Part shown: one piece after another, positions 7,071 through 58,738 of the stretch
Position numbering within the stretch: the stretch's first letter is position 1
Layout: every line of letters begins with the position of its first letter
Assembly (NCBI GenBank): GCA_046484045.1
Contig: JAWOBZ010000003.1
Location: 1 to 59,025, forward strand
DNA: 59,025 bases
DNA from: Thermoplasmata archaeon
Lineage (GTDB): Archaea; Thermoplasmatota; Thermoplasmata; Halarchaeoplasmatales; Halarchaeoplasmataceae
Direction of reading: 5' to 3'
The notes under the pieces: generated by a model
What the model saw: the letters and a program-made list of their open reading frames with translations, nothing else
Database searches by the model: none
What the model was told of the DNA's origin: nothing
Position numbers and translations under genes: made by a program

Positions 7071-8039
7071 ATGCTGATAATATCTCTGTCGATATTGGTC
7101 GCTTTCTTCATAGCACTCATAGTCTCTAAATGGCAGATAGACACATTTTCAGAGGCTGGGTTGATCGGTAAAGACATGCACAAGGATGGTGCTCCAGAGA
7201 TACCCGAGATGGGGGGTCTGGCAGCCATCGTTGGTTTTATTGTGGGAATATCTTTACTGCTGGGAAGAGGTGAAGAGAACATCAACAACGCTGTTTTCCT
7301 GACCGCTATCATAGGTATAATCGGAGCCGGTTTCATCGGCATGGTAGACGATATGGTGAAGATCCGCCAGAGGACGAAAGCAATGCTGCCTTATCTTTTC
7401 ACACTGCCCTTCGGAATACAGATGATGGGTGAGTCGTTCTCGATCTTCGGCATCCATTTCGATGTTGGATGGGTAATACTGTTGATCGTTCCTTTCGGGG
7501 TAACCTGTGCAGCCAACGCATCCAACATGCTCGAAGGGTTCAACGGTCTCGGAGCTGGATTGTCGTTCATCATAGCTACCACGCTGATAATACTGATCTA
7601 TATGGGGAACGGGGACTCATCCAACTACGGTTTGTATATCCTGTATCCTCTCTTGGGCGCCACCCTTGGGTTCTCGGTTTTCAACCTTTATCCGTCGAGG
7701 ATCTTTCCTGGCGATACCTTCACGCTCTTCAGCGGTGCTGCTATAGGCTGCGCCGCCATAATCAGCGACCTGATAACGCCTGGTATCATCTTGTTCATCC
7801 CCATGATAACGGAATTCTTCCTTAAATTCAGGGGCGGTTTCAAAGCGGAAAATTTTTCCAACGTTAACGAGGAAGGTTATCTCAAGAGCACCCACGATAA
7901 GACCGAGAGCATCACTCACTGGATAGTAAAACACATGAATGTAAAAGAATGGCACCTCGTGGCGATCGTGTGGGCCATCGAGGGTGTATTGGCATTATTG
8001 ATAATCATCCTTTTCGGATTTTTTAACTTCAGTTTCTGA
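7071..8039 (+). CDS. polyprenyl-phosphate glycosyl-1-phosphate transferase (MraY/WecA/AglH, GT4 family), paralog 2
   Basis: Same motif set as the upstream gene: 'GKDMHKDGAPEIPEMGG', 'MVDDMV', 'NASNMLEGFNGLGAG', 'IFPGDTFTL'. The two genes are a tandem duplicate. Confidence 0.8.
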   Translation: MLIISLSILVAFFIALIVSKWQIDTFSEAGLIGKDMHKDGAPEIPEMGGLAAIVGFIVGISLLLGRGEENINNAVFLTAIIGIIGAGFIGMVDDMVKIRQRTKAMLPYLFTLPFGIQMMGESFSIFGIHFDVGWVILLIVPFGVTCAANASNMLEGFNGLGAGLSFIIATTLIILIYMGNGDSSNYGLYILYPLLGATLGFSVFNLYPSRIFPGDTFTLFSGAAIGCAAIISDLITPGIILFIPMITEFFLKFRGGFKAENFSNVNEEGYLKSTHDKTESITHWIVKHMNVKEWHLVAIVWAIEGVLALLIIILFGFFNFSF

Positions 8040-8528
8040 TCACCTGTAAAGTGAAGGACCGGGTTTCGTTGTGGACACTTCTTTTTCTTTGACCGGTGCA
8101 CCACCGAGTGATTGGAAGTGTATGGTTACCCTCATACCTATATTGACTATATTTTGGACGGTGTTGAAGAAATCGGTTCTGTTCAAGTCCTCGTCGTACA
8201 TGTGCATCTTGACTATCACCGAGTCCGGTATGTTTTCACCGTCCCTCTTGATGTTGTAGATGTTGTGACCCTCTGATAAGATCATCACCAGATTCTTCTC
8301 GAAATGTGCTCTCTGATTGGAATTCAACTGTGTTAGGATCTGTTTGTGTTCCTTACTCACTGTAAGTTTGTAAACGACCTCGAGCCTTTTAGGATAATCT
8401 TCAGGATTACCGAGAAGTACGATCCTGTCACCGTGTTTTAACTGTATGAGCCATGACAACTGTTTGTGATCGATGATCTCGTATTCCCTATCGTCATCGT
8501 CCAGCCATTCCGTTATCTGTTCTTTCAT
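8040..8528 (-). CDS. hypothetical soluble protein, function unknown
   Basis: Clean 162-aa ORF with non-repetitive composition, packed between flanking genes. I recognise no motif. Confidence 0.5.
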   Translation of the reverse strand: MKEQITEWLDDDDREYEIIDHKQLSWLIQLKHGDRIVLLGNPEDYPKRLEVVYKLTVSKEHKQILTQLNSNQRAHFEKNLVMILSEGHNIYNIKRDGENIPDSVIVKMHMYDEDLNRTDFFNTVQNIVNIGMRVTIHFQSLGGAPVKEKEVSTTKPGPSLYR

Positions 8529-9125: not shown

Positions 9126-10596
9126 GTTCTTTCACCTTCTCGAGGTATTTGCCACGTTCTCTGAGGATTTCCAGCACTTTCACGGCCCTTCCAGTACTGT
9201 CGAAGATCGGGATGCCGATTTCGTGAAATCCCTTTCTCCACTTGTCTGCGTTGGCACCTCCGTGGAGGGTGATTACCAATGGTTTGGAAAGTGATGGATA
9301 TATGGCCGTTATATCCGATATCGATGGATCGTCCAAGTTGATGGCCTTGGATAAACAGAGGAGCACTGCATCCAAATTTGGATCCCCGTCGAGGATCTCG
9401 ATTGTTCTCAGTAATGTTCGGTTGTCCACTTCGGGGGTTAGATCAATGGGGTTCGTTACCGATCCAAGCGGGCTGACAACTGTTTCTAGTTTTTCTATGG
9501 TATCCTGGCTGAGATCCGCGATCGACAGGTCGGAACCGCTCTTCTCGATCAGATCGGATACGATTATACCCATACTTCCCGCACTGGATACTTCTGCGAT
9601 GTTTCCGCGGGTTAGTGGTTTATAGCAAGACAGTGCTGTAGAGAATTCTACCAGTTCTCTCTCATCTTCCGCTTTTATTATCCCTGCTTGTTTCATCATC
9701 CCGTCAAGGAGTTTTCCTGAGGTCTTCGCAATGTTTCCAGTGTGCGATTGAACTGCCTTGGAGCCCCTCTCTGATCTCCCACCTTTCAAAAGGACGATCG
9801 GAGAATGAGGTGTGACCTTTTTGGATAATCCGTAGAACCGTCTGCCGTCGGTGAAGGTTTCGATGTAAAAAGCCAACACGGAATCACCTTGCCGTCCAAA
9901 ATACTCCAAGAGCTCGTTCTCGTCGATATCGACCTTGTTTCCCAGACCTACGAAGGCTCTCAGTCCGACGTGCATCTCATTCAAAGTCTCGAGGAATGGA
10001 AGGGCCAGGTATCCACTCTGAGATATGAAAGTTACCATACCCTGTCTTGGTCTTTTGATGATATCTTCCGAGACGAAGAAGGTGTCCAGTCCGCTTATAT
10101 TGTCCAGGATCCCCATGGTGTTGGGACCAAGGACACGGATATCGCTGTTCTCTATAATAGATGCGAGTTCTCTTTCCATCTCCGCCCCCTCTTTCCCTCC
10201 TTCACGGAAACCGCTGGATTGGATGATGGCTGACCGGACGCCTTTGTCGATCACCTTCTCCATCACACCTAGGACTTTGTTTGCCGGCAGACTGACGATA
10301 GCTAGATCTGGAATCCGTGGTAAATCTTCGATATCTCTATAGAAATTTTCTCTGTCCGTGGGCTTGGGGTTAACCGCGTAGACTTCTGTGCCCATCCTCT
10401 TAAGGTTCCTGAAAACGGTGCTGCCGATAGAATTCTCATTAGATAAGGAAACACCGAATACGACTGCGCTCTCGGGCTCTAACATGGTCTTCAGGTCTGA
10501 GGAACTCATCTTCTTCAACGTCGGAGTTATTGTTTCAGGGATATATAACGTTTGATAAAAAAAATGAAAGTTACGGAAAAGGTTTAGATCATCCAC
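9115..10596 (-). CDS. ADP-forming acyl-CoA synthetase alpha-type subunit (CoA-binding plus CoA-ligase domains, no ATP-grasp)
   Basis: 'ESAVVFGVS' CoA-binding start, 'ISQSGYL', phosphohistidine loop 'VQSHTGNIAKT'. The true start may be the internal ATG at 10509 (MSSSDLK...). Confidence 0.8.
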   Translation of the reverse strand: MDDLNLFRNFHFFYQTLYIPETITPTLKKMSSSDLKTMLEPESAVVFGVSLSNENSIGSTVFRNLKRMGTEVYAVNPKPTDRENFYRDIEDLPRIPDLAIVSLPANKVLGVMEKVIDKGVRSAIIQSSGFREGGKEGAEMERELASIIENSDIRVLGPNTMGILDNISGLDTFFVSEDIIKRPRQGMVTFISQSGYLALPFLETLNEMHVGLRAFVGLGNKVDIDENELLEYFGRQGDSVLAFYIETFTDGRRFYGLSKKVTPHSPIVLLKGGRSERGSKAVQSHTGNIAKTSGKLLDGMMKQAGIIKAEDERELVEFSTALSCYKPLTRGNIAEVSSAGSMGIIVSDLIEKSGSDLSIADLSQDTIEKLETVVSPLGSVTNPIDLTPEVDNRTLLRTIEILDGDPNLDAVLLCLSKAINLDDPSISDITAIYPSLSKPLVITLHGGANADKWRKGFHEIGIPIFDSTGRAVKVLEILRERGKYLEKVKERGG

Positions 10597-11922
10597 TTAC
10601 GCTTCTTCGATCCTGTCGTGCTCTTCTCTCAGATCTATCACACGCTTGGCCTTGCCGACGGTCCTGGGCAGCTTGCCCGGTTCCAGAAGTTCGACGTCCG
10701 CTCGGATGTTCAATATCGCGGTGATGTTCTCCTGTGCCCTCTTGAGCAGGTCCTTTTCGTCGAATTTATCCGATTCGTAGTAATCCTTGTCGATCTCCAC
10801 TTTTACGTACAATTTATCGAGAACGTCCCTATCCACAATGATCTGGTAGTGTTCTCCGATGCCTTCGGTCTCCAGCAGTGCGGCTTCTATCTGGCTCGGG
10901 AAGACGTTCACTCCGCCGACTATCAGCATGTCGTCACTTCTTCCCTTGATGCGCATTATACGCGGGTGCTCTCTACCGCACTCGCACTCTTCGTAGTTGA
11001 CCACGGCGATATCTTTCGTCCTGTATCTGAGCAAAGGCATGGCCTCTCTGGAGAGCATGGTGAAGACCAGTTCTCCTTTCTCTCCTTCAGGCAGGACTTC
11101 TCCGGTAGCTGGATTGATGGTCTCTACCAGGAACTCGTCGCTCCAGATGTGGAGACCCTTCTGTTTTGGACACTCGACTGCTACACCGGGTCCGTAGAGT
11201 TCGCTCATGCCGTAGACGTCGTGAGCTCTGAGACCCATGGATTCCTGTATGCTATGTCTAGCTTCGTCGCTCCAAGGTTCGGCTCCGAACATACCTATCT
11301 TGAGGTTGAAATCCTTCAAGGGGTCGTATCCGTACTTCTTGGATGCCTCTGAAAGGTAAATGGCATAAGAAGGTGTGCAGGAAAGCACGGTTGTCTGGAA
11401 GTCGTACATCATCTTGATCTGCTTCTTTGTATTTCCCGTACTGGTGGGTATTATGGAAGCACCCAGGACTTCCGCACCCTGGTGGAATCCCAGGCCGCCG
11501 GTGAAAAGACCGTATCCGTAGGCGTTCTGGACAATATCTCCGGGTTTCGTCCCGGCTGCGCTGTATGTCCTAGCCATAAGGTCCCCCCAGGTCTCCATGT
11601 CATTGCGTGTGTAAGACACCACGGTGGGTGTTCCGGTTGTCCCGCTTGATGCATGGAACCGTATCACTTTTTCCCTGGGCACCGCTAATATCCCGTAGGG
11701 ATAATGATCTCTTAAATCATCTTTGACCGTGAAAGGTATCTTGTGAACATCTTCTAAACTTTTTATATCGTCGGGTGTGATCCCTTCCTCTTTGAATATT
11801 CTTTTGTACATGGGTACGTTCTCGTAGGCATAACGTACCATCTTCATCATCTTCTCTTCCTGCAGTTCTCTTATATCTTCCAGTTTCATCATCTGAGCTT
11901 TTTCGTTGTACATTTTTTTCAC
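10597..11922 (-). CDS. paaK: phenylacetate-CoA ligase / coenzyme F390 synthetase-family AMP-forming ligase
   Basis: AMP-binding motif 'FHASSGTTGTPTVVSYT', plus 'GMSELYGPGVAVEC' and a PaaK-like C-terminal domain. It abuts the downstream ACD-alpha gene. Confidence 0.85.
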   Translation of the reverse strand: MKKMYNEKAQMMKLEDIRELQEEKMMKMVRYAYENVPMYKRIFKEEGITPDDIKSLEDVHKIPFTVKDDLRDHYPYGILAVPREKVIRFHASSGTTGTPTVVSYTRNDMETWGDLMARTYSAAGTKPGDIVQNAYGYGLFTGGLGFHQGAEVLGASIIPTSTGNTKKQIKMMYDFQTTVLSCTPSYAIYLSEASKKYGYDPLKDFNLKIGMFGAEPWSDEARHSIQESMGLRAHDVYGMSELYGPGVAVECPKQKGLHIWSDEFLVETINPATGEVLPEGEKGELVFTMLSREAMPLLRYRTKDIAVVNYEECECGREHPRIMRIKGRSDDMLIVGGVNVFPSQIEAALLETEGIGEHYQIIVDRDVLDKLYVKVEIDKDYYESDKFDEKDLLKRAQENITAILNIRADVELLEPGKLPRTVGKAKRVIDLREEHDRIEEA

Positions 11923-12040: not shown

Positions 12041-12316
12041 TTACATTGCTATACCAGGAGATGGTGGTGGATTTATACCCGGGTTTCCATTATAAACCTT
12101 TCCCATACTTATTGGTTCACTTTTAATTTCCGGTTCTTCTGGATTTGGATATGGGTCAATATCTTGCTCCGGTCTTTCAATATCTTCATCCGGTTCAATT
12201 GCAGCGGTGGACAGACTCGTCCACATTACGGATACTGTAAAGATCGCAACCAAAGTCAAAACAGCAAGCCCAACATTCCTTACGTTTCTTTCGTTTTTCT
12301 TTCTCATCTTTTTCAC
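12041..12316 (-). CDS. small secreted or membrane-anchored Pro/Glu-rich protein
   Basis: Basic N-terminus plus one hydrophobic helix ('VGLAVLTLVAIFTVSVMW'), then an acidic Pro-rich tail. A GGTGA Shine-Dalgarno-like motif lies 6 nt upstream of the ATG. Confidence 0.45.
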   Translation of the reverse strand: MKKMRKKNERNVRNVGLAVLTLVAIFTVSVMWTSLSTAAIEPDEDIERPEQDIDPYPNPEEPEIKSEPISMGKVYNGNPGINPPPSPGIAM

Positions 12317-13388: not shown

Positions 13389-13475
13389 GGTGGGTGATGT
13401 TTTCTAAAGGATATATTTTTTCCTTTGAATTGATATCGATTTATTCTTATGATAAAGACCACAAAGTATAAGTAA

Positions 13476-13491
13476 GTATACCAGGTATACC
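13476..13491. promoter_or_regulatory. candidate operator of the TA operon (GTATACC / GGTATACC repeats)
   Basis: GTATACC at 13476-13482 and the self-complementary GGTATACC at 13484-13491, 8-23 nt upstream of the antitoxin ATG at 13499. Confidence 0.35.
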
Positions 13492-13498
13492 TTATCAC

Positions 13499-15533: not shown

Positions 15534-17666
15534 ATGTCCTCTGAAACTCGGTCTCTCGATGCTCTCTTTGACCCGGAATCAGTAGCCGTTATAGGTGCTT
15601 CTCATACCAAGGGGAAGGTGGGGCATATTTTGGCATCCAATATCCTTAAATCGGATTACGACGGGGATGTTTATTTGGTCAACCCAAAAGGTGGAGAGAT
15701 ACTCGGTGAGAAGGTTTACGAAAATATAAGCGACCTACCGGACGGGATCGATCTTACATGCATAGTGATACCGGCAAAATACGTCGAGGACGCCGTTAGG
15801 GAGTGTGGGGAGAAGGATTTCAAACATCTGATCATCATATCATCCGGATTCTCTGAAATAGGGAACACGGATATGGAAAGAGCCGTTGTAGATGAAGCCG
15901 AGAAACACGGCATGAGGGTTTTAGGACCTAACGTTTTCGGTATCTACTCGGCCAAGGCAGACCTGAACGCCACCTTCGGTCCTGAGAAGATCAAGAAAGG
16001 GAAGATAGCTCTCATCTCTCAGAGCGGTGCACTCGGAATCGCCATGATCGGAAAGACGGCGGAGCAGTACCTCGGTCTTTCTACCATCGTAAGCGTGGGG
16101 AACAAATCCGATGTCGATGATATGGACCTGCTGGAATATCTCTCCGAAGACGATGATAGCGAGGTCATCATGATATACATGGAGGGACTGCCCAACGGTA
16201 GAGAATTTTTAAAGAAGGTAGATGAGATGCCGCCGGAGAAGGCCATCGTTGTTATAAAAGCCGGCAGGTCCGAGAAGGGTGCTACCGCGGTCGCATCTCA
16301 CACCGGTTCTCTGGCAGGTAGCGACAAGATATTCAGCGCTGCGTTCGAGCAAGCCGGGATCTGCAGGGCTACGAATCTAAGAGAGGCATTCGACTGGTCG
16401 AGGGTATTCGCATCCAATAAGCTGCCGGAAAGAGAGAACACGGTGGTTATCACGAACGGCGGTGGTATCGGTGTGCTCAGTGCTGACGCAGCCGAACTCT
16501 ACGGCGTGAACCTCCTGGACGATCAGACTTTCCTGAAAGAAAAGTTCGAGGACGCCATACCGTCTTTCGGGTCGACGAAGAACCCGATAGATCTCACCGG
16601 TCAGGCGGGTAGGGAGGAATACAAAAGGGCGATGGAAGCCGCACTGGAGAGCGACGAGATCGGTTCAGTGGTGGGGCTTTACTGCGAAACCGGTGTTTCA
16701 GATCCCCTTGAGACATCTAGGGCGTTAAAAGAGATATTCGATAAATACAAAGACAAAAAGCCCATGGTTTTCACTTTTACGGGTGGAGAGTTCGTTGACG
16801 AGTGTGTCGAGTGGTTGAGGAAGAACAAAGTCCCGGCTTTTACGGACACCTACGAAGCCATGTCCGCAATGGGAGCGTTGTTCAGAAGGAAGGAATACTT
16901 GGAGAAGAAGAAGGAGATGGAGGATATGGAGGAACCTGATATCGACATAGACAGGATCCAGAAGGTGGTGGATAAGGTGAGGGGGCAAAACAGATTGAAC
17001 CTCCTGGAGAGCGAGGGGAGGGAGATAATGGACGCCGCGGGGGTTTCCATGGCGAAGGGGAGAGTGGTCAACAGTCTGGAAGAATGCGTTGATGCGGCGG
17101 AAGAGATAGGCTACCCCGTCGTGCTTAAAGTGGTTTCAGAAGATATAATCCATAAGACCGATGCAGGCGGCCTAGCTTTGAACCTAGAGAACGAAAAAGA
17201 GGTCGTAGATGCATACCAGGCGATCTATTCAAGCTGTAAAAGTAAATATCCCAAGGCGAGGATCAGGGGCATCTCGGTGGCTGAGATGTTGGAGGGGGGG
17301 GAGGAGACCATCGTAGGCGGCACGACGGACCCGTCCTTCGGACCAGTGGTCATGTTCGGCCTCGGAGGAGTCTATGTAGAGATATTGAAGGACGTTCAGT
17401 TCCGCGTGGCACCTATATCTAAAAGGGAGGCGAGCAGGATGATGGGAGAGATAAACTCGTTCCCGGTGTTAGTAGGGGCTAGGGGGCAGAAGAGGAAGGA
17501 CCTGAACGCACTAGCAGATGTTATATACCGTGTTTCATTTTTGATGGATAAGATAGAGGCTATCTTAGAGATAGATCTTAACCCGATAAAGGCTTTCGAA
17601 CAAGGTAAAGGATGCAAAGCCGTTGATGTTGCAATCACACTTAAAAGAGAGGTGGAAGAAAAATGA
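15534..17666 (+). CDS. acd: acetyl-CoA synthetase (ADP-forming), fused alpha-beta form
   Basis: 'ESVAVIGAS', 'ISQSGALG', phosphohistidine loop 'VASHTGSLAGS', and a C-terminal ATP-grasp ('GYPVVLKVVSEDIIHKTDAGG'). Confidence 0.9.
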   Translation: MSSETRSLDALFDPESVAVIGASHTKGKVGHILASNILKSDYDGDVYLVNPKGGEILGEKVYENISDLPDGIDLTCIVIPAKYVEDAVRECGEKDFKHLIIISSGFSEIGNTDMERAVVDEAEKHGMRVLGPNVFGIYSAKADLNATFGPEKIKKGKIALISQSGALGIAMIGKTAEQYLGLSTIVSVGNKSDVDDMDLLEYLSEDDDSEVIMIYMEGLPNGREFLKKVDEMPPEKAIVVIKAGRSEKGATAVASHTGSLAGSDKIFSAAFEQAGICRATNLREAFDWSRVFASNKLPERENTVVITNGGGIGVLSADAAELYGVNLLDDQTFLKEKFEDAIPSFGSTKNPIDLTGQAGREEYKRAMEAALESDEIGSVVGLYCETGVSDPLETSRALKEIFDKYKDKKPMVFTFTGGEFVDECVEWLRKNKVPAFTDTYEAMSAMGALFRRKEYLEKKKEMEDMEEPDIDIDRIQKVVDKVRGQNRLNLLESEGREIMDAAGVSMAKGRVVNSLEECVDAAEEIGYPVVLKVVSEDIIHKTDAGGLALNLENEKEVVDAYQAIYSSCKSKYPKARIRGISVAEMLEGGEETIVGGTTDPSFGPVVMFGLGGVYVEILKDVQFRVAPISKREASRMMGEINSFPVLVGARGQKRKDLNALADVIYRVSFLMDKIEAILEIDLNPIKAFEQGKGCKAVDVAITLKREVEEK

Positions 17667-18700
17667 AGAATATTATTATATCGTCGACCGAAGCGGACGC
17701 TGGAAAGACCACGGTAGGAATGGCTATAGCGATGTGTTCCGACAAGAAATTCAACTACTTCAAACCCTTCGGAGACAGACCGATCTACAAGAAGAAGAGG
17801 CTGATAGATTACGACGCGAAGCTGTTCAAGAACGTTCTAAAATTGGATATGGACTACGAGAAATTCTGCATAGGATTCGACCATTCCAAGATCAAGTACG
17901 CATACGACGAAAAGACTATAGAAGATAAACTGACGGAAAGGATCGAGGAACTGAGCCAGGGAAAGGACGGAGTGATCATCGAGACGGGAGAGGACTGGAG
18001 GTTCGGCTCTTCGGTGTCATTGGACCCCGCGTCTTTGTATAAAATATTGGATGCTGAGATCGTGCTTGTAGCGGCGGGTTCACGGACGAACATCGTGGAT
18101 GATCTGACGGCGGCAGCAAGGTACTTCGACGCCCTTGACATACCGATCAAGGGAGTAGTGTTGAACAAAGTTGAGTCGGAAGAAGACATCAAGAATTTTG
18201 CGCTGAAGGATATCGAATCTATGGGATTGGACGTTCTGGGTATCATCCCCGAGATAACGGATTTTAAATTGACCAGAGTGAGTTTTATCAACGACATGCT
18301 GTTCGGAAAGGTCGTCGCCGGTGAAGTTGGGTTGGAGAACATAGTGGAGAACATCTTCGTGGGTGCGCTGAGCGTCGACGAGATGGTGAGGAACCCGCAC
18401 TTCCACGAGAAGAGAAAATTGATCGTGACCGGAGGAGACAGGTCCGACGTTGTACTCGCATCCCTCGAGGAGGGCACGGCAGGGATCGTATTGACCAACG
18501 ATATCATCCCTCCGAACAACATCATATCTAAAGCTGACGGGGTCGGCATCCCGCTGATATCCGTACCGCTGGACACCTTCGAAGCGGCACAACGAATCGA
18601 GAGGATGGACAGGATAACCACCATCGAGGACGACTTCAAGATAGACAAGATCAAAGAGATCATCACGAAGAAGCTGGATGTTGACTTGTTAAAAGTTTGA
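17663..18700 (+). CDS. DRTGG-domain protein resembling the N-terminal (BioD-like plus DRTGG) regulatory half of phosphotransacetylase
   Basis: P-loop-like 'STEADAGKTTV' and the DRTGG motif 'VTGGDRSDV'. ATGA overlap with the acd stop. Confidence 0.75.
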   Translation: MKNIIISSTEADAGKTTVGMAIAMCSDKKFNYFKPFGDRPIYKKKRLIDYDAKLFKNVLKLDMDYEKFCIGFDHSKIKYAYDEKTIEDKLTERIEELSQGKDGVIIETGEDWRFGSSVSLDPASLYKILDAEIVLVAAGSRTNIVDDLTAAARYFDALDIPIKGVVLNKVESEEDIKNFALKDIESMGLDVLGIIPEITDFKLTRVSFINDMLFGKVVAGEVGLENIVENIFVGALSVDEMVRNPHFHEKRKLIVTGGDRSDVVLASLEEGTAGIVLTNDIIPPNNIISKADGVGIPLISVPLDTFEAAQRIERMDRITTIEDDFKIDKIKEIITKKLDVDLLKV

Positions 18701-18725
18701 TTTAAAGTCAACGACACGGCTTTTT
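18680..18725 (+). terminator. stop-codon-spanning hairpin followed by a T5 run
   Basis: GTTGACTT (18680-18687) pairs with AAGTCAAC (18705-18712) around the TGA at 18698-18700. TTTTT at 18721-18725 fits archaeal oligo-T termination. Confidence 0.35.
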
Positions 18726-18733
18726 GAACTTAT

Positions 18734-19339
18734 GGGGGGATTGGAGTAATTCCCCCTACTCACAAAATGAATTTTGTTCTTTTGTAGGGTCGTTGACTTC
18801 TAACAAGAAAGGTCGCTCTTTCTTGTGAATCTCAGAATTATGTAATAATTCTAGGTTAGTTGGAACAGTGTTCCACTATAAATGAAAAAAATTTGAATCA
18901 CAGAAGGATAATCGATACCTATTCAAATAATGCACAGCCCGCCAGCGGGTGGGTGTAGCGGACGTGTGTACCGTCGCTCCAGTTCTCGTAAACTACATTG
19001 GTGCCGTTTATCCCGAACTCGTTCGGGAAAGTATTGGAATTAGAAATTCCAATGTTAGAGGAATTCATTCCTCTACTCGAAGGAAAACTTATGAGTTTTC
19101 CTGTAAACTTAGAGAGCTCTGCTCGACAAGTATCTGGAAAGGCGATAGGCTTTCCTGTAGACATTTCAGTAACCATGTTACTGATGTCATAGGAATCATT
19201 GATTCCTATTTAGTAGAAATTTTGAATTCCTACGATCACATGAAATCCCATTGATTTCATGTTAGAGGTAGCGGATCTTCGTGCTGTAGTTGGCTTTTCC
19301 TACCCTTCGTCCATCTACACTGGAATGTTTGACATTCCA
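18734..19339. repeat. dense cluster of short perfect palindromes/hairpins (GGAA...TTCC core) in a gene-free region
   Basis: Fourteen dyads located by hand in this span, plus one at 18680-18712 just upstream; see the finding for coordinates. No credible ORF. Confidence 0.8.
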
Positions 19340-19568
19340 CCTCTCACTCGGTCATAGACCTCGTGACATTGCATAGCTGTAGGAGTAAACGTCGGAAGGT
19401 GTAGGTTCTCCCTGTGCTGGCGGTGTTCCGATAGTTGCCAGCCGGTTCACCTTCTCGCCGTTCAGGAAGGTCGAGAGATAGCGGTAATCCGTCTTAGAGA
19501 TAAGTGCACCAAAAAATATCGGTAATCGACCCAAAAATTTAATTCCTATCTACTTATTATTATTGACG

Positions 19569-21893
19569 ATGAAGCAGATACCAGCAGGTAAATCGATAAG
19601 GAGCGACTTCGGTGGAAAAACATCATTCAGTGATTTTATTTCTGAAATTCAGCAAAAAGAGTTGGACGGATATTTACACGTTAGTCTAGCAAAGACTGAT
19701 AGTAGATACGTAGGTAAATTGTTCTTTGCAGAGGGTAACGTGATTGCGGCAGTTCATCAAGGAAGAGAGGAACTTGAAGGAAAAAATGCAGTTAAAAAAT
19801 TGGTAGAGAACGCGATAAACCCTGACAGTTTATTGGAATTACATTCTTATTCCTACAGATCATCGTCAATCTCCATAGAGCATATATTATCTGACAAAGA
19901 GGATTGGTGGTTGGATGAGGAGATTAACATTGAACTGGAGATCAAAAGAGCGAGCAGCAAGAAAGGTAGGAAAGGGGAAGAGGAAAAATCAGTTTCCAGT
20001 GTTGATGTAGATATTGAAGATAAGGATTATTATGCCGACGATGTCTTCGAAGAAGAATTCGACATAGATATGAGTGATTTCGGGAAGATGGAGAAGATAC
20101 CGGCTGCGGTTTCACCCCTCAAAGAGGGGGAGGACATAGTGGAGAGAGCGGAAAGAAGAGTCCAGAAGATCCGAGAGGGAAAACAGGAGCAGGAATTGGA
20201 AAGATTAAAAGAGGAAATTAAGAGAAGAAAACAGGAACTCGATCGAAGAGAAAAACAGGTGCAGGAAAGGATCGATAAGATCAAGGAAAAGGAAGAAGAA
20301 CTGAAAGATAAAGCCTCACAGGTCAGAGAGGAGATGCAGAACGTAAAGGACCTCTGGACAGATCTAAGGAGGGAAAGTAGGAGCCTCACATCCGCAAAGG
20401 AAGGGATCGAAGAGAAGATAAGCGAGCAGATGAGGAGAGAAGAAGAACTCTTCGAAAAGGAGAATAAACTAGAGGAAAAGGGAGACCAGCTCTCAGAATG
20501 GGAGAAGGACATCAAAGCCCGCTCATCTAAACTAGGTAAGATGGAAGAAGAACTCAGCAGCTGGCAAAGAGAACTTTCCAGGAAGGAAAAAAGATTGGAT
20601 TCCATGGAAAATGAAGTTGAAAGTAGGGAGGAAGAAGTCTTCGACAAGGAACATGCACTCGATGAAAGAGAAAGCGAGGTATCGGAGATCGAAGAACGGA
20701 TCGAAGATAAAGAAAAGCAGATCGATAAGGTAAAGGATAGTCTTGATAAAAGGAGAAGAGAACTCAAACTCAAAGAAGACGAGTTGGATATGAAAGAAGA
20801 GAACATCCAGAATAGGGAGGAAAAACTCTCAGAGGAAAAGGAAAAAGTCGAAGAACTCAAACACGGTCTGAAAGAGGACCGCGAATCCCTGCGTGAGATG
20901 AAGAGCAGATTGAGGAGCAGAGAAAAAGAACTCAATCAAAGAGAAGCGGAAATAGATGAAAGGGAAAAGAAGGTAGAGTCCAAAGAAGAAGAATTGAAGG
21001 AGAGAAAGGATAACCTCGAAAGGAAAGCCATCGATCTAAACGAAAGGGATCTGGAATTGAACAAATGGGACGCTGACCTCAACGAAAAGGCCGATAGGGT
21101 CCTTTCCGCAAAAGAAGATCTAGACGAGAGAGAAAAACAATTAGAGGACATGAAAGAAGAACTTGAGATCAAGGAAGAAAACCTAGAAAGAAAAGAGAAA
21201 GAGCTAGAAGAAAGAAAAGATGAACTAGAGCAGAAGTACAAGGATAGAGAGGAAGAATTAGACGATAAAGAAGACGAATTAGCTGAGATGAAAAGAAAAT
21301 TGTCCGGTAGAAAGGGTGCACTTTCTAGAAAGGAAAATATCCTAGAGGAAAAGGAAGTGGAAATAAAAGAAAAATATGATCAACTGGGCGAGAGAGAAAA
21401 AGAGATCGAGCAAGAAGAACAAGAAATAGAAGATATAAAACAAGAACTCGAAGAGGAAAGAGCCGAACTGGCAAAACATAGGATGGAAATCGAAGAAGAA
21501 AGGGAAGAGATGGAGGAAGGACTCCAGGAAAAACTGAAGGAAGTCGAAGAAGAACGAAACGATCTGCAGAGCGAAAAACAAGAACTAGAAAATAAAACCC
21601 AGAAAGTAAAAGATGAGCTGGAGAAATTGATGGACGAAAAGGACGATTTGGAAGATAAAAGGTCAGAAATAGAAGAAAAGAAAAATAAACTCGAAAACAG
21701 GGAAGAAAAAATCGTCTCCTTGGAAGAAAACTTGGAGGAAAAGGGAAAGGAACTCGATGATAGAGAAAAGGATATCGAGAAGAGGGAAAAACGTCTAGAG
21801 AAGAGGGAGGAACAGGTGGAGGAGAAAGAAGAACTTTTCAATGAAAAACAAAAATCTTTGAAATCCATAAGAGAAGGTCTGGACGAGATTTAA
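19569..21893 (+). CDS. long coiled-coil protein with small N-terminal globular (DUF4388-like) domain
   Basis: The N-terminus 'FSDFISEIQQKELDGYLHV....GKLFFAEGNVIAAV....LEGKNAVKKL' resembles the DUF4388 pattern. An acidic linker follows, then roughly 580 aa of E/K/R/D/L heptad-like sequence. ATG at 19569 (the ORF track uses the TTG at 19563). Confidence 0.7.
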   Translation: MKQIPAGKSIRSDFGGKTSFSDFISEIQQKELDGYLHVSLAKTDSRYVGKLFFAEGNVIAAVHQGREELEGKNAVKKLVENAINPDSLLELHSYSYRSSSISIEHILSDKEDWWLDEEINIELEIKRASSKKGRKGEEEKSVSSVDVDIEDKDYYADDVFEEEFDIDMSDFGKMEKIPAAVSPLKEGEDIVERAERRVQKIREGKQEQELERLKEEIKRRKQELDRREKQVQERIDKIKEKEEELKDKASQVREEMQNVKDLWTDLRRESRSLTSAKEGIEEKISEQMRREEELFEKENKLEEKGDQLSEWEKDIKARSSKLGKMEEELSSWQRELSRKEKRLDSMENEVESREEEVFDKEHALDERESEVSEIEERIEDKEKQIDKVKDSLDKRRRELKLKEDELDMKEENIQNREEKLSEEKEKVEELKHGLKEDRESLREMKSRLRSREKELNQREAEIDEREKKVESKEEELKERKDNLERKAIDLNERDLELNKWDADLNEKADRVLSAKEDLDEREKQLEDMKEELEIKEENLERKEKELEERKDELEQKYKDREEELDDKEDELAEMKRKLSGRKGALSRKENILEEKEVEIKEKYDQLGEREKEIEQEEQEIEDIKQELEEERAELAKHRMEIEEEREEMEEGLQEKLKEVEEERNDLQSEKQELENKTQKVKDELEKLMDEKDDLEDKRSEIEEKKNKLENREEKIVSLEENLEEKGKELDDREKDIEKREKRLEKREEQVEEKEELFNEKQKSLKSIREGLDEI

Positions 21894-27434: not shown

Positions 27435-30400
27435 ATGACAAAAGGAAATAAGAAAAAATACTATTTCGGATGTTTGGCACATTTTATCGTATTTATCTTA
27501 CTGATGACATCATTTAGTGTAATTTTATACACTCATGATGGCTCTGAAAAAATGGTCAAAAGTAAATCAATCGAAATCATGGACAGCGGTACAGATGATG
27601 GATGGGGGTACAATTGGGTGAACAGTACAGGATCACCCTCGGTGCCGTATCTCTGGGAATATATCACCTTCGACGGAATTCCAACTGATCTTTCGTCAGA
27701 TGGATGGACTGATAAGATACCGTTAGGATTCAACTTTACTTTCTATGATGGGATCTACGATCATGTTTATATAAACTCAAATGGCTGGGTTAGTTTTACA
27801 GATCAAGCGGGATATCAAGAAGAGGATTTTCCTGGATACGATAGTTACAACTGTATCATATCTCCTTATTCCACAGACCTGAACCTTTCCGACGGAGAAG
27901 TCTATTACAAGCATGTTGAAAACGGTCATGATCGTTTCGTTGTAACGTGGGATAACGTGATGGACAATGGGAATCCACAAACATTTCAGGTTGTGCTCAA
28001 TGAAACCGGAGAATTCTGGTTCAATTATGAAACCCTTAACTCCCCTTCTGCAAACGTGGGTATAAATAATCAGAACAGTTCCATAGGTATCGATTACGAC
28101 TCTGAGGCATCTTTGATGTCCCAGCTTTCGGTCAAATTTGAATACACACCCCCATCATATCGTTTAATATCAACACCCGAATACAAGGGCAATTACGGCG
28201 ATGTAGGAGATGAGTTGTGGTATTCCATCAAGTTGAGAAATATCGGAACTAACGTCGACGCCTACGACTTAAACACGGTGGGAAGTACTTGGACGACTGA
28301 GATATACGATTCCACGATGACATCCGTGATCTCTACCATCACACTCGATTCGATGGAAACCAAAGAAATCGCTGTGAAGGTGGATATTCCTTCATCCGGA
28401 GTGACAGCTGGTGATTACGACACCGCGGAGTTGGTGATGACTTCTCAGAACGATGCTAGTTTGGAAAACACCGCGACACTGATCTCCAATGTTAAGGCAC
28501 CGATACTTTTGGTCGATGATGATTCATATATATATTCGTCTAACACGGATTACACTACAGAAAAATATTACATGGAGGCATTGGAAGATAACGGATATAC
28601 ATACAATTATTGGAATCACACTGCTTGGGGCACACCGGATGGGATATCTCCTGATACACACTACGTTACCATTTGGTTCACCGGAAACGATTACGGTGAT
28701 GACGGCGGTGAATGGGAAGGTTCCGACCCAACTTTGGATGGAACGGACAGAGCCGTACTATCGGAGTATCTAAATCATGGTGGTAGATTGTACTTGAGCT
28801 CAATATATTGTTATTATGATCTCACCTTTTACAGTGGTGACTGGTCACAGTGGCTAAGAGAGTATCTATCTATAGATGATTTTGTTGATGTTTATTCAGA
28901 GCATTCTTTTGAAGGCGTTCCTGGTGATACTATTGGAAACGAGCTTGACTTAAGCGTTTATTCTGGGGATTTTCACCCGCAGATGAGTTGGAATGCGACC
29001 TCACATGGAAAAACTGTTGACGATGGTGTGGTCACCCATCTGAACAGCACCAACGATCGTAACGTCTCGGTGAGAGCTGATAGCGGCAAGTTCAGAACCG
29101 TTTATACCGGCTTCGATTTCTCAACGGTCAACAATGGAACTGAAGGTAACCGAACCATACTCATGGGCAGGATAATAGACTGGCTAATACAGATACCACC
29201 TTATAAACCGAAAAATCCACTGCCTACCGACGGTCATGAAAGACTTCCCAACACAGTCAACCTAAGTATAGAAGTTAACGACTATAACGGAGACAGCATG
29301 AACGTGTCTTTTAGACGCGCTTCTGATAACAGTGTTATACAGAACGTCACCGATGTTCCTAGCGGTTCTAGGGCGGAGGTAGAACTATCGGGTCTAACCT
29401 ACGGCAAAACTTACCGATGGTATGCTGTAGCCATGGACGATATCGGAGAAAGTATCTCTGATACGTTTACCTTTACAATAAATAACCCCCCAAACAAGCC
29501 AATGGATCCTTCACCCTCTCATCAGTCCAGCGGCATGGAATATTCCGTAGAACTAAGCGTCAACGTTTCTGATGCAGACGGTGATTTAATGAACGTTACC
29601 TTTTATAATGGCCAGAACCATGAAATAATAGGTGAGAACCAAGGAGTACAAAATGATAGTCAAACTACAACACCTTGGTCAGATCTAGATTCGAGTGAGA
29701 TTTACTATTGGTATGTGATCTCTGATGATGGTGTGATCCAAACTAAGTCTGATACATGGACTTTCGTAACTAATACAAAACCAAGTGCTCCATCAGATCC
29801 CAAACCATACGATGGCGAAAAAGCGGTCGGGATAGGTAACCTCTCCCTGAGTACATATGTAACAGATCCAGAAGGTGATGTTATGGATGTAACTTTTTAT
29901 GATGCTTCAGACGACAGCGTCATCGGTAGAAATAATGAAGTAGTGAGCGGAACCAGAGCAGAAACGGATTGGGAAGGTTTAACAGAACCTGGAAAAGAAT
30001 TCAAGTGGTACGCAATTGCAGATGACGGATTGGATACAAGAAGATCTTTAACATTTTCGTTCATCTCAAATCATCCACCTGAGACCCCAATAAATCCCTC
30101 ACCTGAGGACGGTGAAACAGATGTTGGGACCACCGTGATAATAAGTGTTGATTTAGCTGATATTGATGAAGAACTCATGAATGTGACCTTCTTTGATGCA
30201 TCAGATGATACTGAGATCGGAAACAGAACCGAGGTGGATAACGGAACTGAAGCTGTTACATGGCGTAATCTTGAAACTGATAATACATATGAATGGTATG
30301 TTGTTGTATCAGATGGAAAAGACGAAGTAACTTCTTCAACATGGTCTTTTACTACAGAGAGCGGGAATCCCCCGCCGGATGCACCGACTAATCCTTCACC

Positions 30401-31772
30401 ATCTCACGAAGAAACGGGGGTATCGACTTCTCCCACTTTGAGCGTGGACGTTTCCGACCCCGATGGAGATACGATGTCCGTTACATTCTACGACGCTTCG
30501 GACAACAGCACTATAGACAGTCAAACAGGAGTGGCGAGTGGAGGTTTCGCTTCCGTAACGTGGTCTGGATTATCAGCTCAAACACCTTATCAGTGGTATG
30601 TGATAGTCAATGACGGTGAATCTGATACAAAATCGGACACATGGAACTTTACAACCGGAGTTGGAAATCAAGCACCGGATTCGCCGATAAATGCTTCACC
30701 ACCGGATGGAGCGACAGACACTTCATTATCCCCTGACTTGAGCGTAGAGGTTTCAGATCCCGATGGAGACACACTTACTGTGACATTCTACGACGCATCG
30801 GATGATAGTGAGATAGACAGTGATTCAGGCGTATCTAGCGGCAGCACTTCGTCAGTAACATGGACAGGGCTGTCATCAGAAACAGAATATGAATGGTACG
30901 TTATAGTTGAAGACAACGAATTATCTACTGAATCAGATACATGGTCTTTCACCACCGGTGTTGATGATACACCGCCAAGCATAGTCTCAACTACACCAAG
31001 TGATGGAGCAACCGATGTGGATACGGACACTGATATTGAGATCGTACTAGATGAAGCAATAGATTCCAATAATATAGATATAACAATTTCATCAAACGAT
31101 GGAGATGTTTCGGGTACGCCTGAATTATCCACAAACAACAAAGAGATAACGTTTACACCCGACAGCGACTTGAGCCCTGATACGGAGTACACGGTTAGTT
31201 TAACGGTACAAGATTATTCAGGGAACATACTCACTCATGAATTCACATTCACTACTGCAGCAGGAGCGGACAGCGACGGAGACGGTATGCCGGATGAGTG
31301 GGAGATTGAACACGGACTCGATCCAAATGATCCCGACGACGCGGATAAAGACCCGGACGGAGACGGTAAAACCAACTTGGAAGAGTACCAAGAGGGGACA
31401 GATCCACAGAAAGCGGAAGGAGACGATGGATTCCCGATGTGGATCATAGCAGTGATTGTGGTTATCGGTGTAGCAGTCGTTTTCCTGTTCTTCTTCATGC
31501 AAAAAGGAAAAGAGGGAGATGTCGAAGGAACGGAAGAAGAGTCTGAAGATCTCCTAGAGGACGAAGAAGATGAAGAACTAGGTGAAGATATCTTTGAAGA
31601 AGACGAAGAAGGATCAGTAGAAGAATTAGAGGATGACATCTTTGAAGAAGACGAAGAAGGATCAGTAGAAGGATTAGAGGATGACATCTTCGAAGAGGAG
31701 GGCGAAGGATCAGTAGAGGAATTAGAGGCTGAAGACACCTTCGAAGAGGAAAACGAAATAGAAGAACAATAA
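27435..31772 (+). CDS. giant surface protein (adhesin-like)
   Basis: Domain order: signal anchor, NIDO-like domain, CARDB/NEW3-like domain, six 98-aa beta-sandwich modules, SbsA-type Ig domain, TSP3-like Ca-binding repeats, TM helix, acidic tail. Supporting motifs are the N-terminal hydrophobic anchor, 'FNFTFYDGIYDHVYINSNGWVSF' (NIDO-like), the SbsA_Ig-like 'PPSIVSTTPSDGATDV...', 'DSDGDGMPDEWE..DPDGDGKTNLEE', the TM 'FPMWIIAVIVVIGVAVVFLFFF', and a D/E-rich tail. Confidence 0.85.
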   Translation: MTKGNKKKYYFGCLAHFIVFILLMTSFSVILYTHDGSEKMVKSKSIEIMDSGTDDGWGYNWVNSTGSPSVPYLWEYITFDGIPTDLSSDGWTDKIPLGFNFTFYDGIYDHVYINSNGWVSFTDQAGYQEEDFPGYDSYNCIISPYSTDLNLSDGEVYYKHVENGHDRFVVTWDNVMDNGNPQTFQVVLNETGEFWFNYETLNSPSANVGINNQNSSIGIDYDSEASLMSQLSVKFEYTPPSYRLISTPEYKGNYGDVGDELWYSIKLRNIGTNVDAYDLNTVGSTWTTEIYDSTMTSVISTITLDSMETKEIAVKVDIPSSGVTAGDYDTAELVMTSQNDASLENTATLISNVKAPILLVDDDSYIYSSNTDYTTEKYYMEALEDNGYTYNYWNHTAWGTPDGISPDTHYVTIWFTGNDYGDDGGEWEGSDPTLDGTDRAVLSEYLNHGGRLYLSSIYCYYDLTFYSGDWSQWLREYLSIDDFVDVYSEHSFEGVPGDTIGNELDLSVYSGDFHPQMSWNATSHGKTVDDGVVTHLNSTNDRNVSVRADSGKFRTVYTGFDFSTVNNGTEGNRTILMGRIIDWLIQIPPYKPKNPLPTDGHERLPNTVNLSIEVNDYNGDSMNVSFRRASDNSVIQNVTDVPSGSRAEVELSGLTYGKTYRWYAVAMDDIGESISDTFTFTINNPPNKPMDPSPSHQSSGMEYSVELSVNVSDADGDLMNVTFYNGQNHEIIGENQGVQNDSQTTTPWSDLDSSEIYYWYVISDDGVIQTKSDTWTFVTNTKPSAPSDPKPYDGEKAVGIGNLSLSTYVTDPEGDVMDVTFYDASDDSVIGRNNEVVSGTRAETDWEGLTEPGKEFKWYAIADDGLDTRRSLTFSFISNHPPETPINPSPEDGETDVGTTVIISVDLADIDEELMNVTFFDASDDTEIGNRTEVDNGTEAVTWRNLETDNTYEWYVVVSDGKDEVTSSTWSFTTESGNPPPDAPTNPSPSHEETGVSTSPTLSVDVSDPDGDTMSVTFYDASDNSTIDSQTGVASGGFASVTWSGLSAQTPYQWYVIVNDGESDTKSDTWNFTTGVGNQAPDSPINASPPDGATDTSLSPDLSVEVSDPDGDTLTVTFYDASDDSEIDSDSGVSSGSTSSVTWTGLSSETEYEWYVIVEDNELSTESDTWSFTTGVDDTPPSIVSTTPSDGATDVDTDTDIEIVLDEAIDSNNIDITISSNDGDVSGTPELSTNNKEITFTPDSDLSPDTEYTVSLTVQDYSGNILTHEFTFTTAAGADSDGDGMPDEWEIEHGLDPNDPDDADKDPDGDGKTNLEEYQEGTDPQKAEGDDGFPMWIIAVIVVIGVAVVFLFFFMQKGKEGDVEGTEEESEDLLEDEEDEELGEDIFEEDEEGSVEELEDDIFEEDEEGSVEGLEDDIFEEEGEGSVEELEAEDTFEEENEIEEQ
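29196..30959 (+). repeat. six tandem 98-aa (294-nt) protein modules
   Basis: Each module reads P-x-x-P-x-(N/D)P-x-P...LSV.V.D.DGD.M.VTFYDASD...W..L.....Y.WY....DG......TW.FTT. The span is 1764 nt, which is 6 x 294. The last two copies are the most similar. Confidence 0.85.
31587..31751 (+). repeat. 48-nt tandem repeat (3.4 copies) encoding DIFEEDEEGSVEELED
   Basis: Copies start at 31587, 31635 and 31683 (the third carries a 3-nt insertion), with a partial copy at 31734. The repeat lies in the cytoplasmic acidic tail. Confidence 0.85.
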
Positions 31773-37255: not shown

Positions 37256-37357
37256 ATCTATTTAAAAGAGGGCATCGATTAAAAATATATCGAAAGAATT
37301 GAAAGGTATTTTCTCATATTACAAAATAAAAAATCAAAAAAATAATAAAACTACTCA

Positions 37358-37418
37358 GAATCAAAGATTCACAGGAATCAAAGATTCCTCTTCTCTTTGG
37401 TATAAATACCAAAGATTC
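37358..37418. repeat. three copies of CAAAGATTC within two GAATC-AAA-GATTC palindromes and a TTTGGTAT/ATACCAAA palindrome
   Basis: GAATCAAAGATTC at 37358-37370; AGGAATCAAAGATTCCT at 37373-37389; TTTGGTATAAATACCAAA at 37396-37413, followed by GATTC. Confidence 0.8.
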
Positions 37419-37430
37419 TAATTGTTTTTT

Positions 37431-37452
37431 AAAAAAATTAAAAAAAGAAAAA
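37431..37452 (-). terminator. oligo-T termination signals downstream of the C1 peptidase gene
   Basis: Read on the minus strand just after the stop: CCCTTTTTCTTTTTTTAATTTTTTT, giving T5, T7 and T7 runs. Confidence 0.5.
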
Positions 37453-37468
37453 GGGTTTTGTGGGTGTT

Positions 37469-52676: not shown

Positions 52677-52833
52677 GTAATTTACGAGACTAAAGCAGGT
52701 GAGCAGAATATCATATGCTCCGGAACTCCTTTGTAGCAATACCGCGCGTTGTAAGTCATCAATACAACCTGTTTTTATGATATATCTATCCTCATTGTTT
52801 TTCCTATTGATAGTCTACATGTCCTTGTGATTT

Positions 52834-52878
52834 ATGGAATTTTTATTAAATTCCATAGATTGTTGGAACAAGTTCCAA
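52834..52878. repeat. two adjacent palindromes: ATGGAATTT/AAATTCCAT and TTGGAAC-AA-GTTCCAA
   Basis: 52834-52856 has a 9-bp stem and 5-nt loop. 52863-52878 has 7-bp arms and a 2-nt spacer. The arrangement resembles the pair at 18834-18875. Confidence 0.8.
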
Positions 52879-52992
52879 CTAAAGAACTGGAAAGGAGCTA
52901 GACTTACACGCGATCTACGATTAAAAACAAAAATTATATATAATAGTTGTTAATGAGCCTTAATTAAATCTAATTAAATATGATGTGATATC

Positions 52993-58595: not shown

Positions 58596-58658
58596 GGAAT
58601 TGCAAGAATTCCTCCTGCCGGGATTTTATTCAGAATTACTCCTTCCATTCATAATTCT
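58596..58658. repeat. two hairpins: GGAATT/AATTCC and AGAATTA/TAATTCT
   Basis: 58596-58612 (loop GCAAG) and 58632-58658. The second has the same 7-bp arms as the hairpin at 18834-18852 but a different loop. Confidence 0.75.
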
Positions 58659-58738
58659 AAAAATAGGTTTTTACCTCATGAACCCGAGTAAAATAGTGTA
58701 AATTTAACATGGATCATAGATACACAGAAGATTGTAAA

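Follow-up and report, generated by a model that had tools for sequence, protein, structure and literature searches.

Repetitive extragenic palindromes (REPs), their paired form REPIN (REP doublet forming hairpins) and bacterial interspersed mosaic elements (BIMEs) are bacterial sequences mobilised by Y1/HUH transposases known as RAYTs (REP-associated tyrosine transposases); the palindromes are 20-40 nt long and extragenic, and form mosaic arrays of up to ~10 units joined by short linkers. In haloarchaea, palindrome-associated transposable elements (PATEs), which are transposase-less derivatives of IS200/IS605 (IS1341-type) elements, are described as having near-terminal palindromes, no inverted terminal repeats and no target duplication; terminal-only forms of 52 bp occur and may still move, and one mobile element shows a strong propensity to enter another (Dyall-Smith et al., 2011, PMC3119063). 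Halobacterium expresses PATE-derived RNAs, and an 8-bp stem with a UUCA loop is described as a right-end-like motif of IS1341-type tnpB 3' ends, HgcC RNAs and PATE-derived RNAs (Gomes-Filho et al., 2015, PMC4615843). Here we describe a gap rich in short dyads, positions 18701-19562 of a 59,025-nt stretch of contig JAWOBZ010000003.1 from a Thermoplasmata archaeon (this whole stretch is called the window), which lies between a gene for an AAA_26/DRTGG protein and a gene for a 774-aa coiled-coil protein. We propose that the gap probably consists of PATE/REP-like miniature hairpin elements derived from the insertion sequence (IS) family IS200/IS605, nested in a dead open reading frame (ORF) at a variable chromosomal spot.

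The original prediction had listed 15 short dyads here. In a scripted check all 15 lie where it had placed them, with the arms it had given; 14 are perfect Watson-Crick palindromes, and the other, at 18734-18756, contains one G.T pair, as had been said. Several arms are longer by 1-3 bp than first given (18803-18826, 9 bp; 19033-19053, 9 bp; 19238-19262, 10 bp), and there are two further dyads, one perfect (18762-18777) and one imperfect (19214-19232). Enrichment above chance was likewise confirmed: a finder for perfect dyads (arms of at least 7, spacer of at most 8) returned 12 in 18701-19562, whereas 1000 first-order Markov shuffles of this stretch averaged 0.48 and never exceeded 5, and with arms of at least 8 there are 10, as compared with 0.15 expected from such shuffles. 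In the whole window 25 dyads reach that arm length, the same 10 among them. The density comparison that had been proposed was run within the window, on a crude gene map, and gave 13.9 dyads per kb in the gap, ~2.9 per kb in other intergenic DNA (4.9 kb) and ~0.41 per kb in coding sequence; the short spacer 37256-37468, with 3 dyads, equals the gap at 14 per kb. The enrichment of the gap is real, and the gap marks the extreme of a genome-wide tendency for hairpins to lie between genes.

Of the 14 perfect GGAA...TTCC dyads in the window, 13 are intergenic, and the distance from GGAA to TTCC ranges among the dyads between 4 and 12 nt. Folded as single-stranded DNA, 19005-19268 gives a row of ten hairpins (z = -10.45) at a regular spacing of ~23-25 bp; fourteen hairpins together contain 113 Watson-Crick pairs, and nearly all arms are perfect. 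Tandem Repeats Finder (TRF) reported no tandem repeat in the window, the units being too diverged, and a terminator/promoter scan found no terminator-like site. At the Rfam gathering score the only match in the whole window is a tRNA (58739-58811); over the region at E <= 10, the best matches reach 17-19 bits (E >= 0.37), and no family accounts for the span. A weak match to group-II-D1D4-5 (17.5 bits, E = 0.37) was judged to be chance. Smaller intergenic groups of GGAA...TTCC hairpins occur at 37357-37415, 52833-52879 and 58596-58910; they follow the 1650-aa and 3330-aa genes and surround a tRNA.

Under the dyads lies a decayed minus-strand ORF. The prediction that the gap holds no credible ORF was half right, in that ~310 nt are remnants of a small minus-strand ORF family. 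When compared by blastn with fetched loci, 18933-18990 and 19263-19492 proved homologous to several places in L003 (GCA_964535805.1), the closest relative, with 94% identity. The ORF spans 18919-19534 on the minus strand, is split by two insertions (19011-19262 and 19316-19366), and its remnants read ...DYRYLSTFLNGEKVN...VYSYSYA...VDGRRVGKANYSTKIRYL...GTNVVYENWSDGTHVRYTHPLAG. One listed dyad, CCCGC/GCGGG at 18938-18949, is merely the codons for PLAG in this remnant. The pieces of the ORF and the insertions between them are as follows.

18919-19010, minus strand: 3' piece of the decayed ORF, ending in GTNVVYENWSDGTHVRYTHPLAGCALFE and the stop (translation; homologues P0121-P0124; alignments A1 and A6).
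19011-19262, plus strand: insertion 1, 252 nt, a string of ~10 hairpins, U1-U9 and B'' (alignments A1 and A6; fold).
19011-19030 with 19077-19108: layer 1 of insertion 1, the ancestral two-hairpin module of ~52 nt (U1, linker, U4, GTAAAC tail).
19031-19076: layer 2 of insertion 1, U2 and U3, 46 nt, inside the linker of the ancestral module.
19109-19261: layer 3 of insertion 1, B'' and U5-U9, 153 nt, after the ancestral GTAAAC tail.
19263-19315, minus strand: middle piece of the decayed ORF, ...VDGRRVGKANYSTKIRYL (translation; alignment A1).
19316-19366, minus strand: insertion 2, exactly 51 nt, made of hairpin B (TCACGAGGTCTATGACCGAGTGA), GAGG, hairpin A (TGGAATGTcaaACATTCCA) and GTGTA (alignments A1 and A6).
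19367-19534, minus strand: 5' piece of the decayed ORF, ...KTDYRYLSTFLNGEKVNRLATIG...DVYSYSYAM, N-terminally truncated (translation; homologues; alignment A1).

A protein search with the ORF found four relatives only, P0121-P0124 (91-115 aa; P0122 has the locus tag R6U61_08425), and the two with a source name come from metagenome-assembled genomes (MAGs) of Thermoplasmata/Thermoplasmatota. The remnant has no Pfam match, and in NCBIfam its one match is a weak one to the YD-repeat family TIGR01643 (E = 0.22, below cut-off); we use "YD-like" as a label for the ORF, with no claim of membership. Exact look-ups of an 85-aa ORF that spans the array, and of P0122, returned no record. In L003 the 3' end of the ORF (AGCCCGCCAGCGGGTGGGTGTAG, coding for ...YTHPLAG) occurs five times in one island (7297-7321, 8372-8397, 9689-9746, 11579-11640 and 12183-12225), where the copies separate cassettes of toxin-antitoxin type (DUF3368/UPF0175, RHH/PIN, an AbiEii-like nucleotidyltransferase and VapB-like), a layout that resembles the orphan-module arrays of polymorphic toxin loci.

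The dyads lie in discrete insertions built from a recurring two-hairpin module. Boundaries were drawn by aligning the window with uninterrupted homologous copies of the ORF, at L003 9680-10010 (i), L003 11570-11820 (ii) and in L012 (alignments A1 and A6), to which A6 adds a fourth homologue, L020. Insertion 1 is missing from L003 9680-10010, L003 11570-11820 and L012, all of which read straight through. L020 carries a 51-nt module of a U4-like and a U1-like hairpin (L020 2238-2288), at a junction identical to that of insertion 1 (...GTTCGGGA followed by TAAACGG). Since L020 carries the module alone at the same site, the array in the window grew by later insertions, of 46 nt and 153 nt. Comparison of the window with L020 shows stronger conservation in the hairpins (40/44 identical positions) than in the flanks (102/158). 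A direct repeat, TTAGAG (19109-14 and 19262-67), borders the 153-nt block.

Insertion 2, whose hairpin A is TGGAATGT-caa-ACATTCCA, is common to the window and L003 copy (i) only; it is missing from L003 copy (ii), from L012 and L020, and from protein P0122, which ends directly after RYLY. It begins at its first nucleotide with hairpin B and ends with hairpin A plus 5 nt, and insertion 1 has a hairpin at each end. The exact boundaries, drawn against the uninterrupted homologues, leave insertion 2 with neither terminal inverted repeats nor a target duplication, and the 51-nt module of L020 and the window has no target duplication either. In-frame insertion in the manner of the Rickettsia palindromic elements was considered, since the lengths of 51, 51, 252 and 54 nt are all multiples of three, and was rejected on account of in-frame stops and the 46-nt inner insertion; the multiples of three are probably a coincidence.

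The same module is present at unrelated loci in different genomes. In its basic form it measures ~51-54 nt: hairpin B, which is imperfect (TCAC-GA-GNTC...GANC-GA-GTGA), is joined through a short linker to hairpin A (TGGAA...TTCCA), and a GTAAA-like tail follows. L003 (537-972) has, between its PNPOx and DUF433 genes, a tandem array of at least 430 nt, which contains an assembly gap (Ns) and repeats an identical 54-nt unit composed of B (TCACAAGTTCTTTGAACGAGTGA), GCAC, A (TGGAAAGG...CTTTCCA) and GTAAA; the equivalent position in the window (13389-13498) is a plain 110-bp spacer. By blastn, the terminal 57 nt of the L003 array match window 19103-19159. A type III toxin-antitoxin RNA array was tried as an explanation for the L003 repeats and rejected, there being no toxin gene downstream.

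We scanned public metagenomes with a degenerate B+A pattern derived from L003 and insertion 2 (21 specified bases; rough chance estimate, fewer than one match). Of five matches, that in L016 looks random (GC 0.55), and four come from one soda-lake sediment metagenome. The four soda-lake contigs share a non-coding element of 135-250 nt, at least 92% identical between copies and with a sharp common right end, which lies among unrelated housekeeping genes (flanks such as PCNA, histidine kinases and a sulfotransferase); beside the soda-lake copies no transposase or cas gene was found. With a profile of the soda-lake element alone, nhmmer recovered the L003 units (E = 6e-11) and insertion 2 (E = 4e-4). 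In one copy (L018 1823-1893, minus strand) a group II intron 3' end (RF00029, 44 bits, above the gathering score) interrupts the GGAATG...CATTCC hairpin of the element. Other searches of this kind were empty: phage and plasmid collections contained no blastn match to the 862-nt region, and the viral collection none to the B+A pattern; the exact U5/A-hairpin pattern found L003's own contig alone in the genome collection and nothing in the metagenome and viral collections; and a protein search with a chimeric query, in which all open translations of the arrays were joined, scored nothing.

Within the window we searched the whole 59 kb, without filters, with a covariance model of B+A (model R1), and eight of its ten best matches there fall inside 19011-19389. 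Insertion 2 scores 60.7 bits but is a training member; an untrained match at 19108-19161 scores 31.5 bits (E = 4e-6), and further matches lie at 19209-19262 (E = 0.06) and 19077-19107 (E = 0.16). Dispersal in the window, as judged by R1, amounts to two clear module sites and a weak one at 37368-37415, besides which there are strain-specific insertions in the comparisons of the window, L003, L012 and L020 and the four copies in one soda-lake metagenome. The weak site (E = 0.6) has the layout of the module, namely hairpin, hairpin and GTGAA tail. Pairing in the family is maintained by compensatory change: in an alignment fitted to the model, both partners have changed at 12 of 17 pairs, a figure reached by 0 of 500 shuffles. 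Hairpin B keeps a conserved GA/GA internal loop (alignment A4), and a few G.U pairs are tolerated within the family.

The longer relatives of the module carry the right-end signature of IS1341-type elements. The right end of the soda-lake element reads CCCCGTCC-TTCA-GGACGGGG-AGGAGGTCA (written out up to its last position, ...CCCCGTCC-TTCA-GGACGGGG-AGGAGGTCACA), and a sub-threshold Rfam match to HgcC (27 bits) falls on exactly the part with the stem and UUCA loop. A scan of viral contigs for this right-end motif found it in L019, 34 nt past the stop of a bona fide tnpB with HTH_OrfB_IS605, OrfB_IS605 and Cas12f1-like TNB domains, where, as at the soda-lake right end, there is a sub-threshold HgcC match (28.5 bits) and a match to sot0042.

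Several observations weigh against an origin of these modules in IS200/IS605 elements. The window region itself (18700-19562) has no match to the tetraloop/AGGAGGTCA motif, to HgcC or to sot, and its first part (18701-18932) has no significant match to the soda-lake element (nhmmer) or to model R1. Pfam scans of 48 of the ORFs in the window found no transposase, nor was one found beside any module copy. No consistent target oligonucleotide emerges: the junctions, directly after CGTTTA, GCAATG and GCTCTG, differ, and although GTAAAC precedes the B'' block both in the window (19103-08) and in L003, the other junctions do not share it. The TTAGAG direct repeat round the 153-nt block is untypical of IS200/IS605, and hairpins A and B are unlike each other, whereas the left-end and right-end hairpins of IS200/IS605 are usually similar. 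Few module copies are known. Two of the supporting results are also partly circular: the soda-lake element was found by a family-derived pattern, so that part of its similarity is guaranteed, and the covariation alignment, being model-fitted, leans towards the structure of R1.

With these points included, we regard nested miniature elements of PATE/REP type as the probable explanation, and the following course of events would account for the locus. A small YD-repeat-like minus-strand ORF would have died at a strain-variable spot of a hypersaline Thermoplasmatota chromosome. One module inserted alone (19316-19366) and a second after the RYLY codons; the second was later enlarged, with 46 nt entering its linker and 153 nt following its tail, to give the 252-nt array of ten hairpins, and these steps are shown by the alignments. 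A HUH/Y1 transposase may move the modules in trans in the form of single-stranded DNA hairpins, as a rule with no duplication of the target, and a preference for landing in or beside existing copies could give rise to arrays of perfect palindromes. Pairing would be kept because the hairpin, and not its sequence, is what gets recognised.

A more far-reaching version of this proposal, that the 51-nt two-hairpin module is a distinct and undescribed class of minimal mobile element in halophilic Thermoplasmatota, homing to specific sites and also targeting its own tail or linker to build strings of perfect palindromes, seems to us unlikely. The same codon after RYLY is indeed hit in three diverged copies of one ORF family, and on that version the hairpins would be under selection (91% identity as compared with 65% in the flanks); the module could home in a guide-RNA/TnpB-like manner, or could have a host function such as switching off orphan toxin-like ORFs.

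The likeliest rival is that the hairpins act as RNA, whether as a non-coding RNA that is PATE-derived or resembles an omega RNA, as a group of small RNAs, or as stabilising or terminating 3'-end hairpins of convergent transcripts. The compensatory changes, the tolerance of a few G.U pairs, the GA/GA internal loop of hairpin B, the greater conservation of hairpins than flanks between the window and L020, and the intergenic position of 13 of the 14 GGAA-type dyads would all fit such a role, as would the hairpins at 18734-18875, just past the DRTGG stop codon and with a T-rich run, and the expression of PATE-derived RNAs in Halobacterium (PMC4615843). Yet loops of 1-3 nt are poor for RNA hairpins, no Rfam family comes at or near threshold, no terminator-like site was found in the scan, a dead ORF houses the dense array, which three homologous copies lack, and an omega RNA needs a right-end tetraloop and a guide-adjacent 3' end, neither of which the window modules possess; we give an RNA function a low probability. 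It is slightly less probable still that the palindromes were made locally by mutation, through template switching or snap-back synthesis, replication slippage, or tandem duplication of quasi-palindromes. Local mutation would explain why nearly all arms are perfect (the 113 Watson-Crick pairs of 14 hairpins), it agrees with the recent tandem amplification of an identical 54-nt unit in L003 and with the 6-bp direct repeat bounding the 153-nt block, and it is favoured by the fact that no transposase was found. Against it stand homologous B+A modules with sharp boundaries at unrelated loci in different genomes, the same 51-nt unit alone at two sites, and the soda-lake copies, which are at least 92% identical within unrelated flanks and so require copying between loci.

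The original prediction had favoured dyads acting at the DNA level, for instance as binding sites for a dimeric regulator or a nucleoid or partition protein. In support of such an array, or of a centromere-like site, many dyads share GGAA/TTCC and the array is regularly spaced at ~23-25 bp. This reading was not borne out, and we consider it improbable: half-sites lie anywhere between 4 and 12 nt apart; the arms are not alike, and co-vary to keep pairing in place of a fixed sequence; the array is missing from the sister genome and from the three homologous copies; and related modules are scattered in other genomes. Pfam scans of 48 of the window's ORFs, in which we found no tnpA, tnpB or other transposase (Y1 included), cas, Orc1/Cdc6 or ParA/ParB, also show no adjoining partition operon of ParA/ParB type or regulator gene, the AAA_26 gene having a weak CbiA match only. 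Still less credible is that the span is simply a decayed gene, possibly with a replication origin or a degenerate CRISPR array added. The ~310 nt of ORF remnants do show gene decay, which the prediction had named as a way in which its own reading could fail, and the repeat/"spacer" layout of L003 looks superficially like CRISPR; but the dyads sit in the inserted, non-homologous parts outside the remnants, and decay leaves them unexplained. In L003 every "spacer" is the same 26-mer and is itself a hairpin, no tandem repeat was reported for the window by TRF, and the Pfam scans yielded neither cas nor Orc1/Cdc6. The suggestion of a replication locus fared no better: GC skew follows gene strand only, the array is missing from the homologous copies, and no dyad motif of ORB type was seen, as judged by eye.

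The part of the gap next to the DRTGG gene differs from the arrays, and contains the following features.

18680-18799, no strand assigned: within these positions, the dyad GTTGACTT/AAGTCAAC, spanning the DRTGG stop codon (dyad check).
18705-18715 with 18789-18799, no strand assigned: 11-bp long-range inverted repeat, AAGTCAACGAC with GTCGTTGACTT, enclosing the hairpins 18734-18756 and 18762-18777.
18734-18875, no strand assigned: cluster of five hairpins (18734-56, 18762-77, 18803-26, 18834-52 and 18861-75).

The DRTGG gene and the dead ORF converge on the cluster, a T-rich run comes after 18762-77, and the RNA fold of 18701-18935 has z = -4.47. No homologue of 18680-18799 was found elsewhere, by blastn against the fetched loci or by nhmmer, and no target duplication or second copy of 18705-18799 was seen. 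The hairpins of 18734-18875 resemble the others in appearance, and may be further debris, or 3'-end hairpins of convergent genes.

The genes on either side are these.

17663-18700, plus strand: gene for an AAA_26 + DRTGG protein (BioD-like / phosphotransacetylase-N-like; Pfam, with homologues in Thermoplasmatota MAGs).
19569-21893, plus strand: gene for the 774-aa protein, with a ~110-aa N-terminal domain and a very long E/K-rich coiled coil (~600 aa).

The neighbourhood of the gap comprises an ADP-forming acetyl-CoA synthetase, the AAA_26/DRTGG protein (stop at 18700) and the 774-aa coiled-coil protein. On the evidence of DRTGG-protein homologues, the organism belongs with hypersaline Thermoplasmatota, Ca. 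Natronoplasma and Ca. Saliniplasma being among the named relatives. The DRTGG gene is the last conserved syntenic gene before the variable spot, and what lies downstream differs in each relative: toxin-antitoxin cassettes in L003, and an acetyl-CoA hydrolase/GNAT gene in relatives at 81-83% identity. Independent short-read contigs end within ~100 nt of the DRTGG stop codon or within the array. Among Logan contigs from the same sample, L002 ends after hairpin U1 (19027/19028) and L013 restarts in the ORF remnant (19456/19457), which suggests repeats or population variation in the array region. The sole Pfam match of the 774-aa protein, RNase_Y_N, covers ~70 residues inside the coiled coil and may reflect composition, not homology; no link between this protein and the dyads was found. 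Farther along, L013 is identical to the window over 6177 nt, up to 25633/25634, and then carries a DDE_Tnp_1 transposase gene (L013 6178-7034), an IS insertion that varies between strains and lies between NUDIX and UbiA. Three giant proteins, probably secreted or on the surface (27435-31772, 1445 aa; 37469-42421, 1650 aa; 42684-52676, 3330 aa), carry between them Ig-like domains, a papain-like peptidase domain and a subtilase domain.

If the nested-element reading is correct, the locus records a stepwise invasion, by hairpin elements of ~51 nt, of a gene and then of each other, and preserves three states: ancestral in L020, amplified in L003 and mosaic in the window. It would also extend PATE/REP-like elements, and their link with IS200/IS605 and TnpB, from haloarchaea and bacteria to uncultured Thermoplasmatota of hypersaline settings. 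Two hairpins and a 5-nt tail would make a minimal candidate substrate for transposition or homing by single-strand hairpins. On the practical side, arrays like these interrupt short-read assemblies at this spot and give rise to spurious ORFs, and an unannotated "gene-free" gap like this one should first be taken for debris of mobile elements, ahead of any proposal of a regulatory role.

How, then, does the locus compare with systems already described? With REPs, REPINs and BIMEs it shares short intergenic palindromes, clustered mosaic arrays, a two-hairpin mobile unit (as in a REPIN) and strain variation. REPs, by contrast, are near-identical within a genome and carry a GTAG or CGTC tag, whereas the window units differ among themselves, have no constant flanking tetranucleotide (GTAG follows only two of them) and end in a loose GT(A/G)(A/T)A tail; the two REPs of a REPIN pair with each other, whereas the A and B of the module fold separately; and here the host is archaeal, with no Y1 transposase or RAYT found by Pfam in 48 of the window's ORFs. 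The likeness to TnpB omega RNAs, sotRNAs and HgcC (RF00062, RF02656) lies in the soda-lake relatives, which end in a stem, a UUCA tetraloop and a AGGAGGUCA 3' end and score much as a genuine tnpB 3' end does (27 as compared with 28.5 bits); all these scores are below the gathering score of 50, the window region has nothing of the kind, and no tnpB adjoins any copy. Of the explanations put forward in the original prediction, decayed miniature inverted-repeat elements came closest, in that the dyads do belong to small insertional hairpin modules, but the marks of classical miniature inverted-repeat transposable elements are absent: insertions 1 and 2 have neither terminal inverted repeats nor a target duplication, and only 18705-18799 has inverted termini (11 bp).

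The comparison with PATEs is the closest. The window modules differ from PATEs in having neither the tetraloop right end nor a known parent IS, in the dissimilarity of A and B, in the lack of a conserved target oligonucleotide and in their host, Thermoplasmatota where PATEs belong to haloarchaea; the 252-nt string of ten different perfect hairpins and the 54-nt tandem arrays are not described for PATEs in the passages of PMC3119063 and PMC4615843 consulted. Ends related to those of IS605-type elements bearing tnpA or tnpB, which the window modules lack, are reached indirectly through the soda-lake elements, whose copies carry the stem, the UUCA tetraloop and the AGGAGGTCA end as found after tnpB. 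Like PATEs, the modules are non-coding and too short for a transposase, with a minimal size of ~51-54 nt as compared with 52 bp for terminal-only PATEs; they have palindromes at or near both ends, no terminal inverted repeats and, in insertion 2, no target duplication; and they occur as strain-specific insertions, insert into other elements and reside in a hypersaline archaeal host.

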